Source: Bacillus subtilis subsp. subtilis str. 168
Lineage (GTDB): Bacteria > Bacillota > Bacilli > Bacillales > Bacillaceae
NCBI RefSeq assembly: GCF_000009045.1
Contig: NC_000964.3
Location: 2,460,001-2,492,000 of the forward strand
Length of the DNA stretch: 32,000 nt
Direction of reading: 5' to 3'
Under the pieces are notes generated by a model. That model had not been told where the DNA came from, did not search any database, and saw nothing but the letters and a program-made list of their open reading frames with translations. The translations under genes were made by a program, and so were the position numbers. Shown here piece by piece: positions 22,269-29,534 of this stretch; position 1 is the first letter of the stretch; the number at the start of each line of letters is the position of its first letter.

Positions 22269-23513
22269 TCAGCTTTTCTTTTCATCTTGAAAAAAATCTT
22301 TATTAAAGCTTGTTCCCTTTGTTTTGCTCTCCTCTTTTTTTAACGTTGCCCCTTTTCTGATCAGTTTGGTACCGTACTTTTTATTCAGCTTTTCCATCAT
22401 CTGCTGAATGGGCTCATCCTTCGCATCTTCATTAAAGCTGAACAAATCGAGCTGTTTATAGGCCTGCTCTTTTTCTACTAAATCCGTTCCGGTAATGCCA
22501 AGCAGCCTGACAGGATTTTTATTCCAATGTTTAAAAAAGAGGTGCTCCGCTTCTTTCAAAATGTCATTTTTTTGATCAATCGGGTTTCTCAGCGTAGTGC
22601 TTCTTGTGATGGTTCTCCAATCCGCATATCTAATCATAATAAAAAGCTTCGAAGCCATGACTTCCTTGCGCTGTAAACGGTCACTCACAGAAGCGGCAAG
22701 CTTTCTAAAAACGCCTAACAGCTCTTCTTCATCACTGGAATCATGGGAAAGTGTCGATGAGTTGCCGACGCTTTTAAATTCGTAAATGCGCTCCGGGTCA
22801 ACCGGCGCATGGTGAATGCCATTTGCTTTATTTTTAAGGCGCGGACCGTTGATGCCAAGCAGGCGCTTCAGCGAGTGTTCATCAGCTGCAGCTAGCTCTC
22901 CGATTGTATGGATGCCGAGTCCCTTCAGTTTTTCCGCTGTCTTTTTGCCGACTCCGTGCATCTCTCCAACAGGAAGCGGCCACAGGATATCGGGCACTTG
23001 CCTCTTTCTTAAGATCGTAATTCCAAGCGGTTTTTTCATATCAGACGCCATCTTAGCGAGAAATTTATTCGGTGCAATCCCTATGCTTGACGGGAGCAGC
23101 AGCTCTTTTTGCAGCCTGCTTTGGATTTCTTTTGCCGTCTCTAGAGCGCGGCTGCTGTATGGTGTATCGGTCATGTCCATATAGCCTTCGTCGATGGAGA
23201 CAGGCTCCACTAGGTCAGTATATTCACGAAGAATGGTAAACATCGCTCGTGAAGAGTTTCTATAGCGGTCAAAGTTCGGCGGAAGAACGATGAGCTCAGG
23301 ACAATGGCGCTTCGCTTGCCAAACCGGCATCGTTGTTTTGACGCCGCGCGCTCTTGCTTCGTAGCTGCATGTTACCACAATGCCCTTTCGCTCCTTTACG
23401 TTTCCGGCAACTGCGACCGGCTTTCCCCGGAGAGCCGGATCATATGCCATTTCAACCGACGCATAAAAGCTATTCATATCAATATGGAAAATAATTCGGC
23501 TCTTTCCCGGCAT
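22269..23513 (-). CDS. polY1: Y-family DNA polymerase IV (DinB-like)
   Basis: The track ORF reaches 23555. I trimmed it to ATG 23513 (414 aa), with SD AAAGGAGA at 23521-23528. Motifs DMNSFYASVE and SIDEGY. No GAAC-N4-GTTC box upstream. Confidence 0.9.
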   Translation of the reverse strand: MPGKSRIIFHIDMNSFYASVEMAYDPALRGKPVAVAGNVKERKGIVVTCSYEARARGVKTTMPVWQAKRHCPELIVLPPNFDRYRNSSRAMFTILREYTDLVEPVSIDEGYMDMTDTPYSSRALETAKEIQSRLQKELLLPSSIGIAPNKFLAKMASDMKKPLGITILRKRQVPDILWPLPVGEMHGVGKKTAEKLKGLGIHTIGELAAADEHSLKRLLGINGPRLKNKANGIHHAPVDPERIYEFKSVGNSSTLSHDSSDEEELLGVFRKLAASVSDRLQRKEVMASKLFIMIRYADWRTITRSTTLRNPIDQKNDILKEAEHLFFKHWNKNPVRLLGITGTDLVEKEQAYKQLDLFSFNEDAKDEPIQQMMEKLNKKYGTKLIRKGATLKKEESKTKGTSFNKDFFQDEKKS

Positions 23514-23536
23514 AAACAAATCTCCTTTTCGGTCAT

Positions 23537-23565
23537 TAGACAACAGCTTGTACATATAGTAAAAT
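23537..23565 (+). promoter_or_regulatory. Candidate sigma-A promoter for mifM-yidC2
   Basis: TAGACA (23537-23542), 17 nt spacer, TAAAAT (23560-23565). Confidence 0.5.
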
Positions 23566-23585
23566 GAAGCTATTGAATGGATGTG

Positions 23586-23873
23586 ATGACAATGTTTGTG
23601 GAATCGATAAATGACGTTTTATTCTTAGTCGATTTTTTCACAATTATTCTTCCTGCTCTAACGGCAATCGGGATTGCATTCCTCTTACGGGAGTGCCGTG
23701 CGGGCGAGCAATGGAAATCAAAACGAACAGATGAACATCAGACGGTCTTTCACATTAACCGAACAGACTTTCTTATTATTATATATCATCGCATTACAAC
23801 TTGGATACGTAAAGTCTTCCGCATGAATTCGCCTGTGAACGATGAGGAAGACGCCGGTTCTCTTCTTTTATAA
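23586..23873 (+). CDS. mifM: Membrane-insertion-sensing translation-arrest leader protein
   Basis: ORF 23577-23873. N-terminal TM helix VLFLVDFFTIILPALTAIGIAFLL. The C-terminal RITTWIRKVFRMNSPVNDEEDAGS is recognised as the MifM arrest segment. Start set at ATG 23586 (95 aa) from memory; ATG 23577 and 23592 are alternatives. Confidence 0.8.
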   Translation: MTMFVESINDVLFLVDFFTIILPALTAIGIAFLLRECRAGEQWKSKRTDEHQTVFHINRTDFLIIIYHRITTWIRKVFRMNSPVNDEEDAGSLLL

Positions 23874-23899
23874 ACCGCATTTATAAAAAGGAGGAGAAC
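23857..23899 (+). promoter_or_regulatory. SD-sequestering hairpin controlling yidC2 translation
   Basis: GTTCTCTTCTTTTATAAA (23857-23874, the last mifM codons plus the stop) pairs with TTTATAAAAAGGAGGAGAAC (23880-23899, containing the yidC2 SD). One bulged A, two G-U pairs, loop CCGCA. Confidence 0.75.
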
Positions 23900-23903
23900 A
23901 AAA

Positions 23904-24731
23904 TTGTTAAAAACATATCAAAAACTTTTGGCTATGGGTATCTTTTTGATCGTATTATGCTCGGGCAATGCTGCATTTGCAGCGACTAATCAGGTGGGAG
24001 GCCTCAGCAACGTAGGTTTTTTCCACGATTATTTAATCGAACCGTTTTCCGCTCTGCTTAAGGGTGTTGCCGGGCTGTTTCACGGAGAATACGGACTCTC
24101 TATTATCCTCGTAACCATTATTGTGCGTATAGTTGTATTGCCTTTGTTTGTCAATCAGTTCAAAAAACAGCGCATCTTCCAAGAGAAAATGGCCGTTATT
24201 AAACCTCAGGTTGACAGTATCCAGGTTAAGTTGAAAAAGACGAAGGACCCGGAAAAGCAAAAAGAGCTGCAAATGGAAATGATGAAGCTGTATCAGGAGC
24301 ATAATATCAACCCGCTTGCGATGGGCTGTCTTCCAATGCTGATTCAGTCTCCGATTATGATTGGGCTTTATTACGCGATTCGCTCAACACCTGAAATTGC
24401 GTCACACTCGTTTCTATGGTTCAGTTTAGGGCAATCTGATATTCTCATGTCCCTTAGTGCAGGGATTATGTATTTTGTCCAAGCCTATATCGCTCAAAAA
24501 CTGAGCGCGAAATATTCCGCTGTCCCGCAAAACCCTGCAGCGCAGCAATCCGCAAAATTGATGGTGTTCATCTTCCCTGTGATGATGACGATTTTCTCGC
24601 TTAATGTGCCGGCAGCCCTTCCGCTGTACTGGTTTACAAGCGGACTGTTTTTGACAGTGCAAAACATCGTCCTTCAGATGACGCATCATAAAAGTAAAAA
24701 AACAGCCGCTCTTACTGAGTCGGTGAAATAA
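23904..24731 (+). CDS. yidC2: YidC/Oxa1-family membrane protein insertase, lipoprotein paralogue 2
   Basis: 275 aa with a TTG start and SD AAAGGAGGAG. Lipobox LIVLCSG. Five-TM YidC core with a conserved Arg in TM1 (IIVRIVVLPL). Confidence 0.92.
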   Translation: MLKTYQKLLAMGIFLIVLCSGNAAFAATNQVGGLSNVGFFHDYLIEPFSALLKGVAGLFHGEYGLSIILVTIIVRIVVLPLFVNQFKKQRIFQEKMAVIKPQVDSIQVKLKKTKDPEKQKELQMEMMKLYQEHNINPLAMGCLPMLIQSPIMIGLYYAIRSTPEIASHSFLWFSLGQSDILMSLSAGIMYFVQAYIAQKLSAKYSAVPQNPAAQQSAKLMVFIFPVMMTIFSLNVPAALPLYWFTSGLFLTVQNIVLQMTHHKSKKTAALTESVK

Positions 24732-24736
24732 AAAAG

Positions 24737-24768
24737 CAACCCCGTGCAAAAAGCCGGGGTTGTTTTTT
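24737..24768 (+). terminator. Intrinsic terminator of yidC2
   Basis: CAACCCCG (24737-24744) pairs with CGGGGTTG (24755-24762), followed by TTTTTT. Confidence 0.85.
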
Positions 24769-24849
24769 GTTACTTGCAAAGTACCGCGCCAAACAGTCTT
24801 GTTTATCATGGCTGAAGCAGAAATGGCCATCCTAAAAAATAGCCGTATC

Positions 24850-24874
24850 GTTTAAAAAGAAGGAAATCGGGAAT
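24850..24874 (+). promoter_or_regulatory. Sigma-B-type promoter candidate for yqjF
   Basis: GTTTAA (24850-24855), 13 nt spacer, GGGAAT (24869-24874), about 37 nt upstream of the yqjF TTG start. Confidence 0.45.
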
Positions 24875-24910
24875 ACCTTTACTCACCTCCAACCGAAAGG
24901 AGCCTATACG

Positions 24911-25639
24911 TTGACGGAACGCTTTCAGCAAAAAAATATTTCTGTACCTGATGGAATCTGGATCATGAGACAAACCTGGAATGATGTCTTATTTGCTCAC
25001 TGGCCTGTTGATGTTTCTATCCTTCGCGCTTTGGTACCGTCCGTTTTAGAATTAGATACATATAACGGGCAAGCTTGGATCAGCATGCTTCCCTTTATGC
25101 TCACGAACCTGAGGGCGCGTTATCTCCCTGTCATTCCCGGTGCGCGTGCATTTCCTGAGCTTAACCTCCGCACCTATGTCACGTATAAAGGCAAGCCCGG
25201 CATTTATTTTTTTAGCTTAGATGCCGATCATCGTCTGGCGGTCCTTGGCGCTCGCACATTCTTTCATCTGCCTTATTTTTACGCGGATATGAAGTCCGAA
25301 AAAAACGGTGATGCCATTGACTATGTCAGCAAGCGGAAAAATGACAAAGAAGCAGCATTCCACGCCGCATACCGGCCAATTTCAGCGCCTTTTACAGCAG
25401 AAAAGGATTCGCTCGATTACTGGCTGACAGAACGATACAGGCTCTACACCACTTATCGCAATAAGCTCTATTACGAAGACATCCATCATCATCCGTGGCT
25501 GCTGCAAAACGCCGAAGCAGAAATTTCAGTCAATACGGTGACTGATGCTCACGGTATTACATTGCCGGAGTCAGACCCCTTGCTTCATTATGCTAAAAAA
25601 CAGGATGTGTTATTTTGGCCGCTTAGGAAATGGAGCTAA
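24911..25639 (+). CDS. yqjF: Conserved protein of unknown function (DUF2071-like)
   Basis: 242 aa with a TTG start and SD GAAAGGAG at 24895-24902. Confidence 0.8.
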   Translation: MTERFQQKNISVPDGIWIMRQTWNDVLFAHWPVDVSILRALVPSVLELDTYNGQAWISMLPFMLTNLRARYLPVIPGARAFPELNLRTYVTYKGKPGIYFFSLDADHRLAVLGARTFFHLPYFYADMKSEKNGDAIDYVSKRKNDKEAAFHAAYRPISAPFTAEKDSLDYWLTERYRLYTTYRNKLYYEDIHHHPWLLQNAEAEISVNTVTDAHGITLPESDPLLHYAKKQDVLFWPLRKWS

Positions 25640-26812: not shown

Positions 26813-28342
26813 TTAAAGCGGTATGTTACCGTGCTTTTTTTTCGGTCTCTCTTCTGTCTTATGTGTAAGCATATGAAAAGCTTGAATCAGTCTTCCCCTT
26901 GATTCTTCCGGCAAAATGATGTCATCGACCATTCCACAAGCGGCCGCTTTGTATGGGCCGGCGTTTTGCTTTTTGTATTCAGCAGTTTTTTCGCGTTTCG
27001 TCTTTTGCGGGTCAGCTGAAGCTTTGATTTCCTTTTCATACAAAATCGATGCCGCACCTTCTGGACCCATCACTGCGATTTCAGCATTCGGCCATGCAAA
27101 CACAAGGTCCGCTCCGATCGCTTTGCTGTTCATGGCCACATAGGCGCCGCCGTACGCTTTTCTAATGATGAGTGTGACTTTTGGGACAGTCGCTTCAGCA
27201 TAAGCAAACAATAATTTTGCTCCATGCCTGATGATTCCGTTGTGCTCTTGCTGAATACCCGGCAGAAACCCCGGGACATCTTCGACAGTCAACAGCGGGA
27301 TATCAAATGCGTCACAAAAACGGATGAACCTTGCTGCTTTATCAGCAGCGTCAATCGTCAGGCTTCCCGCCAGATGCTTCGGCTGGCTCGCCACGATGCC
27401 GATTGCTTTTTCACCCAGCCTTGCAAACCCAATGACAATGTTCTTCGCAAAAAATGGCTGAATCTCAAAAAAAGACTGCGGGTCAGCCAGCTCCCTAATC
27501 ACCTTCCGAACATCATAAGGCTTTGTCGTATCAGCAGGGACAAGACGGTTTAATAACGGTCTGGACGCCTCTTTCTCTGGCTTCGGCTCTGTTGTCCGGC
27601 CATTCAGCGGCAAATAAGACAGTAGTTTTCTCACCCCTGTCAGAACCTCCTTCTCCGTATGCCCGGAAAAGTGGGCGTTTCCGCTGACGGCATTATGTAT
27701 CCCCGCTCCGCCTAAGCTCTCCGCATCAACCTGTTCCCCTGTCACTTTTTCAATCACCTTCGGGCCGGTAATAAACATCCGGCCAGTCTGTTCAGCCATA
27801 AATATAAAATCTGTGAGTGCCGGAGAATATACAGCGCCTCCAGCGCACGGCCCTAAAATAACCGATATTTGCGGAATGACTCCGGAATATAAGACGTTTC
27901 GGTAAAATATGTGACCGTATCCATCTAATGATAACACACCCTCTTGAATTCTCGCACCACCTGAGTCATTCAGCCCGATAATCGGCGCCTTATTTTTTGC
28001 TGCCAGATCCATCAAAGCGCAGATTTTCCTGGCATGGGTTTCGCCAAGCGCCCCTCCGTACACTGTGAAGTCTTGCGCAAATACATAAACTGAGCGACCG
28101 TCAATTGTGCCGTACCCTGTCACGACCCCATCCCCTAACATGCGCTGTTCTCTTGTTAACACTTGACTTTCCATGAAGGGGTGTAATTCGATAAAGCTGT
28201 CCTGATCTAGAAGAAATATGATCCTTTCCCGAGCAGTGAGCTTGCCCTTTTGCCGCTGCTGAGCCAGCTTTTCCCGTCCTCCGCCTTCTTCTGCCTGCTT
28301 GCGTTTCGTGTAAAAATGATCCATGTGCTCATTCATGCTCAT
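26813..28342 (-). CDS. yqjD: Acyl-CoA carboxyltransferase (propionyl-CoA carboxylase beta chain / methylmalonyl-CoA decarboxylase alpha-like)
   Basis: The track ORF reaches 28366. I trimmed it to ATG 28342 (509 aa; ATG 28336 is an alternative), with SD AAAGGAGA (28351-28358) at 8 nt spacing. Full-length carboxyl-transferase N and C domains. Confidence 0.9.
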   Translation of the reverse strand: MSMNEHMDHFYTKRKQAEEGGGREKLAQQRQKGKLTARERIIFLLDQDSFIELHPFMESQVLTREQRMLGDGVVTGYGTIDGRSVYVFAQDFTVYGGALGETHARKICALMDLAAKNKAPIIGLNDSGGARIQEGVLSLDGYGHIFYRNVLYSGVIPQISVILGPCAGGAVYSPALTDFIFMAEQTGRMFITGPKVIEKVTGEQVDAESLGGAGIHNAVSGNAHFSGHTEKEVLTGVRKLLSYLPLNGRTTEPKPEKEASRPLLNRLVPADTTKPYDVRKVIRELADPQSFFEIQPFFAKNIVIGFARLGEKAIGIVASQPKHLAGSLTIDAADKAARFIRFCDAFDIPLLTVEDVPGFLPGIQQEHNGIIRHGAKLLFAYAEATVPKVTLIIRKAYGGAYVAMNSKAIGADLVFAWPNAEIAVMGPEGAASILYEKEIKASADPQKTKREKTAEYKKQNAGPYKAAACGMVDDIILPEESRGRLIQAFHMLTHKTEERPKKKHGNIPL

Positions 28343-28751
28343 TGTGTTGGTCTCCTTTCGGTTCACAAAGCTCTACAAGAACACCGTTTGTTTCCCGAGG
28401 GGAAATAAACGCGATCTTTTTCCCGTTCGCTCCCTGTCTTGGAAACCTGTCAATCAATTGAACATGCTGATCAGACAATGCTTGAAGCTGTTCAGATAGG
28501 CAGTTGCACAAAAACGCAATATGATGCAGTCCCTGCCCTTTCTTCTCCAAAAATAAATGGACGGGGCTGTCAGCTGTCAACGGCTCTATCAGCTCAAGTT
28601 TGACGCTACCAGCTTGAAAAAAAGCAACATTCACCTTTTGCTCTTCAACCGTTTCTTGATGAAGAAATGCAAGCCCCAATACATTTTCATAAAAGCTTCT
28701 TGCATCTTTTATCGAAAAAACGGCTATCCCGATATGGTCAAGCCTGTTCAT
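28329..28751 (-). CDS. yqjC: VOC-family methylmalonyl-CoA epimerase-like protein
   Basis: Track ORF is 28329-28757. The second ATG at 28751 (140 aa) has better spacing to CAGGG. N-terminus RLDHIGIAV is typical of epimerases. The 3' end overlaps the yqjD start by 14 nt. Confidence 0.8.
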   Translation of the reverse strand: MNRLDHIGIAVFSIKDARSFYENVLGLAFLHQETVEEQKVNVAFFQAGSVKLELIEPLTADSPVHLFLEKKGQGLHHIAFLCNCLSEQLQALSDQHVQLIDRFPRQGANGKKIAFISPRETNGVLVELCEPKGDQHNEHE

Positions 28752-28782
28752 TTTCATCCCTGCTTTCGCTAATAGATATCGC

Positions 28783-29483: not shown

Positions 29484-29534
29484 AAGCTCCTCCTTTTTCA
29501 TTAGGTTGACCAATGAAGGAAGAGCTCATGCGAA

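Follow-up and report, generated by a model that had tools for sequence, protein, structure and literature searches.

Introduction

The monitoring-substrate system formed by MifM and YidC2 in Bacillus subtilis was reportedly described by Chiba, Lamsa and Pogliano in 2009, by Chiba and Ito in 2012 and by Sohmen et al. in 2015. In this system, insertase activity is gauged via the pulling force exerted on a nascent chain, and the backup insertase is then topped up. The yidC2 ribosome-binding site is hidden in a stem-loop that ribosome stalling on mifM holds open, and SpoIIIJ is thought to pull on the transmembrane (TM) segment of MifM and so relieve the arrest (PMC4423224); the model is restated in PMC13183943.

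Several other nascent-chain sensors share parts of this design. [quoted passage not shown] SecM, however, monitors Sec export whereas MifM monitors YidC insertion, and the SecM arrest motif, FxxxxWIxxxxGIRAGP, is unrelated to that of MifM. The two also differ in how the ribosome halts: SecM has a single stall site, with proline in the A site, whereas for MifM there are four stall codons in a row, and the arrest of MifM, unlike that of SecM, shows specificity for the ribosome of B. subtilis (PMC4423224, PMC7897499). Vibrio VemP-secDF2 likewise combines a force-sensitive arrest peptide with stem-loop control of a gene for the localisation machinery, but VemP monitors Sec/SecDF and, unlike MifM, has a nascent chain that folds into compact helices within the tunnel (PMC10987492, PMC7897499). 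The spacer between localisation signal and arrest site is also longer in VemP, the median being 133 residues as compared with 54 in MifM (PMC10987492). Clostridial CliM-yidC2 and actinomycete ApcA-yidC also have, ahead of a yidC paralogue, a gene for an arrest peptide that bears a TM segment at its N terminus, and mRNA structure represses the downstream yidC in these systems too (PMC13183943). Neither has sequence similarity to MifM, however, and their arrest chemistry is different: CliM obstructs the A site with the side chain of its penultimate residue, and in some homologues arrest takes place at the stop codon (PMC13183943). CliM and ApcA probably evolved independently of MifM (PMC13183943).

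Here we examine a 32,000-nucleotide stretch of the B. subtilis chromosome (hereafter the window), at one place in which a preliminary description, made by reading the raw sequence alone, had pointed to an arrest-peptide uORF ahead of a gene for a YidC-family insertase. We are nearly certain that this locus, the mifM-yidC2 (yqzJ-yqjG) operon of B. subtilis, is a translation-arrest feedback switch. It has the same proteins, SD stem-loop, arrest motif and stall codons as the described MifM (YqzJ)-YidC2 (YqjG) system and is in fact that locus; the sole nuance concerns the mifM start codon, for which we find ATG 23592 conserved as against the annotated ATG 23586. The switch is already known in B. 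subtilis, including the atomic structure of the stalled complex, and is not new: finding again a system that was described in 2009 and whose structure has been solved adds no new biology. What the exercise provides is a positive control, in that a textbook nascent-chain sensor was recovered, at base-accurate coordinates, by reading nothing but the raw sequence. Our own analysis supplies the protein identities, the hairpin with the SD hidden in it, and both the improbability of the pairing by chance and its conservation, while stalling and its positions, the dependence on SpoIIIJ/YidC and the induction of yidC2 are taken from the literature on the identical sequence.

Results and Discussion

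The locus encodes MifM and YidC2

The mifM (yqzJ) reading frame occupies 23586..23873 on the + strand and consists of 95 codons followed by TAA (23871-23873). Its product is identical over 95/95 residues to chain AZ of PDB entry 3J9W, named there as MifM or YqzJ (E = 3.7e-61), and to its counterpart in 7QGU. An exact-sequence look-up likewise returned 'membrane protein insertion/folding monitor MifM' of Bacillus subtilis. Searches of MifM against NCBIfam and Pfam gave no matching model, and so its identity is drawn from the PDB and from the exact-sequence look-up.

The second gene, yidC2 (yqjG), lies at 23904..24731 on the same strand, 30 nt separating the mifM TAA from its TTG start at 23904. 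This is the start codon that the preliminary description had chosen, and it does open a reading frame of 275 aa for a YidC/Oxa1-family insertase whose product, by exact-sequence look-up, is 'Membrane protein insertase MisCB' (MISCB_BACSU). Residues 63-258 match the YidC/Oxa1 core model TIGR03592 with 171.7 bits (cut-off 84.3). Against the SpoIIIJ equivalog model the protein scores 189, under the cut-off of 377, which is consistent with YidC2 being the paralogue.

To follow these features across species, one genome per species was scanned, yielding 15 related loci (L001-L015), all from the B. subtilis group; a protein homologue search of MifM similarly returned B. subtilis-group relatives only. 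The TTG start of yidC2 is kept in all relatives compared. The two genes have a single promoter-like site upstream and a single terminator downstream. The former is a candidate sigma-A-like promoter (TAGACA-17-TAAAAT; 23537..23565, +) found by a consensus scan with 10/12 matches, both hexamers of which are kept in the 15 related loci, the exception being one base in B. atrophaeus. The latter, an intrinsic terminator marking the end of the operon, is a G+C-rich stem followed by a U-run at 24731..24768 (+), with a folding energy of -24.3 kcal/mol.

MifM carries a single TM segment and a complete arrest motif

MifM has one hydrophobic segment, with Kyte-Doolittle averages over 19-residue windows of up to 2.24 and values above 2.0 over residues 10-35. 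The published prediction places the TM segment at codons 10-34 (PMC6037786), and from hydropathy together with that report we locate the N-terminal TM segment, the part inserted by YidC, at residues ~10-34 (23613..23687, +). The one TM helix claimed for the uORF in the preliminary description is therefore present.

Translation of 23790-23873 gives RITTWIRKVFRMNSPVNDEEDAGSLLL followed by the stop codon. Within it, residues 69-89, RITTWIRKVFRMNSPVNDEED (23790..23852, +), are an exact fit to the MifM arrest motif RIxxWIxxxxxMNxxxxDEED (PMC7897499), and the residues that stalling needs have been identified as R69, I70, W73, I74, M80, N81 and the DEED at 86-89 (PMC4423224). Four consecutive stall codons, with Asp89, Ala90, Gly91 and Ser92 in the P site, fall at 23850..23861 (+) when the published stall sites (PMC4423224, PMC6037786) are placed on the sequence. 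The arrest peptide had earlier been assigned to 23790-23861 and its Asp-Ala-Gly-Ser codons to 23850-23861, and by translation both assignments are exact. With the TM segment ending at residue ~34 and the first arrest codon being 89, the spacer in MifM here is ~55 residues; for the MifM family the reported median distance from TM segment to arrest site is ~54 residues (PMC10987492). The C-terminal 27 residues, with the full arrest motif, are kept in 15 species. For the identical sequence, stalling at codons 89-92 and its release by YidC-dependent insertion are documented by cryo-EM (3J9W), toeprints and lacZ fusions (PMC4423224, PMC6037786, PMC13183943). The published yidC2-lacZ fusions include mutants of the arrest motif and deletions of the TM segment, each in spoIIIJ+ and ΔspoIIIJ cells.

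The arrest codons also contain the sole other SD-like motif nearby, GAGGA at 23844-23848 (codons Glu87-Glu88), which may correspond to the helix of SD-antiSD type that structure 3J9W shows behind the P site. In relatives, DDED is encoded by GAUGAUGAAGA, without GAGGA; the motif is therefore not conserved.

The end of mifM folds onto the yidC2 SD

The minimum free energy (MFE) fold of 23840-23915 returns a hairpin spanning exactly 23857-23899 with 18 bp (10 + 8), in agreement with the stem of roughly 18 bp that the preliminary description had drawn by hand. The same hairpin is recovered in a 181-nt context, and the MFE and centroid structures agree in the two contexts. Folded alone, it has an energy of -15.1 kcal/mol, its pairs being 12 A-U, 4 G-C and 2 G-U. 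The 5' arm lies at 23857..23874 (+) and takes in two thirds of the Gly91 codon, Ser92, Leu93-95, the TAA and one further nucleotide. These are the limits proposed earlier, but the accompanying description of the arm as the last five sense codons and stop is slightly off, as it starts at the second base of Gly91 and ends one base past the stop. A 5-nt loop, CCGCA, follows at 23875..23879 (+) in the MFE fold. The 3' arm, at 23880..23899 (+), contains the yidC2 SD, AAAGGAGGAG (23887-23896), with a 2-nt bulge at 23888-23889. Across the ensemble of structures for the B. subtilis locus, the GGAGG core is paired to the 3' codons of mifM with P = 0.97. Between the mifM stop and TTG 23904 there is no second SD-like tetramer, AAAGGAGGAG being the only one, and the earlier statement that the 3' arm holds the sole SD ahead of this start thus stands. 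A scan of the whole window at Rfam gathering thresholds found no family; the hairpin thus does not correspond to any curated RNA family.

A stable intergenic stem-loop, here with -15.1 kcal/mol, is also what would be expected of a transcription attenuator or terminator acting between mifM and yidC2, in place of a translational occluder. The stem, however, is followed by AACAAAAUUG, without a U-run, and its 3' arm is the SD itself. The terminator scan, moreover, did not flag the hairpin, and the classic terminator of the operon sits at 24731-24768. We therefore regard attenuation as exceedingly improbable and treat the hairpin as an occluder of the SD.

A different question is whether the pairing could arise by chance complementarity, with U-rich Leu/Ser codons happening to lie beside a purine-rich SD and having no regulatory meaning. 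Pyrimidine-rich codons readily pair with any GGAGG. The 76-nt fold (23840-23915) stands out from shuffled sequences to a modest degree only, with a z-score of -2.5 and 4/200 shuffles as stable. High predicted SD pairing is also found elsewhere in the window, local folds giving values of at least 0.95 at 29487-29496 (-), 16956 (+), 10683 (-) and 19144 (+). One of these control sites is a second exact AAAGGAGGAG, located ahead of a YkuD-domain gene. Pairing probability was dropped as a discriminator, several ordinary genes in the window scoring at least 0.95. We thus count both the shuffle z-score and SD pairing as weak evidence, because the former is only -2.5 and other genes in the window score alike on the latter. 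The strength of the specific duplex tells against chance, however. Between the 5' arm and the SD arm it amounts to -16.2 kcal/mol, which is equalled by just 14/21,322 random 18-nt windows drawn from the same 32 kb (0.07%), and the real 5' arm directly adjoins the SD arm.

Occlusion of the SD is conserved in the B. subtilis group

Comparison across species bears on the same question. In 15/15 related loci the final codons of mifM are predicted to pair with the SD (P of at least 0.97). MAFFT puts the hairpins of the B. amyloliquefaciens clade out of register, and we used the variability of stem, loop and flank together with per-species folds instead. Among the 12 closest species, those of the B. 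subtilis clade, 2/38 stem positions are variable, as against 63/262 positions in the upstream part of mifM (44/87 at third-codon positions) and 4/5 positions in the loop (Fisher p = 0.006 for the stems against the upstream mifM flank and 0.0006 for the stems against the loop). The 3' arm is invariant in these 12 species. There is no compensatory covariation to cite, the SD arm never changing among the species compared. The B. amyloliquefaciens clade (L012-L015) lacks the A-U upper stem and has a loop of ~17 nt; its lower stem, CCUCCUUUU/AAAAGGAGG, shows perfect complementarity and is retained, even improved.

Judged from these alignments and folds, the conserved feature is the predicted occlusion of the SD. 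The Leu-Leu-Leu tail that follows the arrest sequence (23859-23873 region), invariant in 16/16 species, is probably constrained by RNA structure and not by protein function, because its codons CUU/CUC CUU UUA complement the SD. Chance complementarity does not account for stems that are far more conserved than adjacent synonymous sites when the loop is free to vary, nor for a lower stem that the B. amyloliquefaciens clade keeps, and even improves, although its loop has been rebuilt, and published genetics also favour a regulatory role for the hairpin (PMC4423224, PMC6037786, PMC13183943). Taking these observations together with the rarity of equally strong pairing in the window, we give chance next to no credence as an explanation and take the hairpin to be a regulatory structure.

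Proposed mechanism of the switch

In the mechanism that we consider nearly certain, and against which we found nothing, mifM and yidC2 are transcribed together. In the repressed state the mRNA is free, the last mifM codons, GUUCUCUUCUUUUAUAAA, pair with the yidC2 SD region, UUUAUAAAAAGGAGGAGAAC, and few ribosomes start at TTG 23904. In the induced state, MifM residues 69-89 bind the exit tunnel and elongation halts while the P site holds one of codons 89-92 (23850-23861). The parked ribosome would cover ~12-15 nt downstream, leaving the 5' arm single-stranded and the SD free, such that YidC2 is made. From the geometry of the ribosomal footprint we infer that a ribosome at 23850-23861 shields 23862-23876, in the 5' arm, while its front does not extend as far as the SD at 23887-23896, and a 30S subunit could therefore load. 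A pull on MifM ends the arrest; the ribosome then goes on to terminate, and the hairpin forms again.

That the uORF matches the published MifM mechanism, as the preliminary description stated, is borne out by the 95/95 identity and by papers that set out the mechanism at this very locus (PMC4423224, PMC6037786, PMC13183943). Two of its statements on function need to be relaxed. Insertase activity is indeed monitored, but not that of SpoIIIJ/YidC1 alone, as MifM senses total YidC activity. Similarly, a ribosome at the end of the uORF does favour translation of yidC2, but the claim that its translation depends entirely on a ribosome at that position is too strict, given that the papers speak of down-regulation and that a terminating ribosome also melts the stem briefly.

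Another way to view the arrangement is as plain translational coupling, in which any ribosome reaching the mifM stop would open the hairpin and yidC2 would track mifM translation with no role for arrest. The layout of the locus lends itself to this, with a stop codon (23871-23873) inside the 5' arm, so that every terminating ribosome melts the stem momentarily, and with a 30-nt gap that is short enough for re-initiation. Coupling of this kind, however, leaves no part for the full, experimentally defined arrest motif that the C-terminal 27 residues maintain in 15 species, and PDB entry 3J9W shows the identical peptide in a stalled state on the B. subtilis ribosome. Arrest-deficient mutations are also reported to suppress yidC2 induction, and refolding of the stem is rapid after termination (PMC4423224, PMC13183943). 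Induction is reportedly lost in point mutants of the arrest motif that still translate mifM normally (PMC4423224, PMC6037786, PMC13183943), and yidC2-lacZ levels are likewise reported to respond to mutations that break the hairpin and to compensatory ones that restore it. Thus, we consider it very unlikely that yidC2 merely follows mifM translation, and favour a switch that depends on arrest.

A predicted long-range helix

The folds contain a further predicted duplex, between the mifM arrest codons (~23832-23858, codons 83-91) and yidC2 codons 10-21 (~23931-23966). Most of the 16 species have it in their MFE folds, and the SD hairpin and TTG start would both lie inside it. Among random windows, 1.5% pair at least as strongly here, as do 0.4-36% in relatives. 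We do not claim this long-range helix, its energy not being beyond chance; the duplex probably reflects acidic codons pairing by chance with U-rich hydrophobic codons.

The mifM start codon

Three in-frame start candidates are available to mifM: ATG 23577, given in the ORF listing, ATG 23586, which is the annotated start and that of the PDB entry, and ATG 23592. The frame from ATG 23577 meets a stop codon in B. atrophaeus, and ATG 23586 is replaced by ATT or ATA in 14/15 related loci; ATG 23592 is kept in all 16 sequences. An SD-like element read from the sequence, GGATGTGAT (consensus GGAGGTGAT; 23579..23587, +), is invariant in 16/16 and stands 8 nt ahead of ATG 23592 and 2 nt ahead of ATG 23586. 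On this pattern of conservation, the functional start of MifM may be ATG 23592, giving a protein of 93 aa and not the annotated 95, and if this is true the published residue numbering moves by 2. A broader reading would add a second layer to the switch, the long-range helix being melted by the same stalled ribosome, and would separately have MifM start at ATG 23592 (93 aa); we think this combination unlikely.

Flanking genes

The neighbours of the operon fit the yqj region of B. subtilis. Upstream, the divergent neighbour on the minus strand is the gene for DNA polymerase IV (polY1), beyond which lie genes for 6-phosphogluconate dehydrogenase, glucose-6-phosphate dehydrogenase and a metallo-beta-lactamase-fold (tRNase Z-like) protein. 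Downstream are genes for a DUF2071 protein, an M20 peptidase, a carboxyltransferase and a glyoxalase-fold protein. The gap between polY1, whose real start is at ~23513, and mifM measures only ~72 nt (23514-23585), and the promoter-like site of mifM at 23537-23565 is just upstream of the polY1 start. On the polY1 side, a search of the minus strand within 23400-24950 gave no sigma-A-like promoter. Further downstream, the carboxyltransferase ORF (26813-28366, -) and the glyoxalase-fold ORF (28329-28757, -) overlap as listed by 38 nt (28329-28366), an overlap that is probably not real and stems from an over-extended GTG start of the downstream gene.
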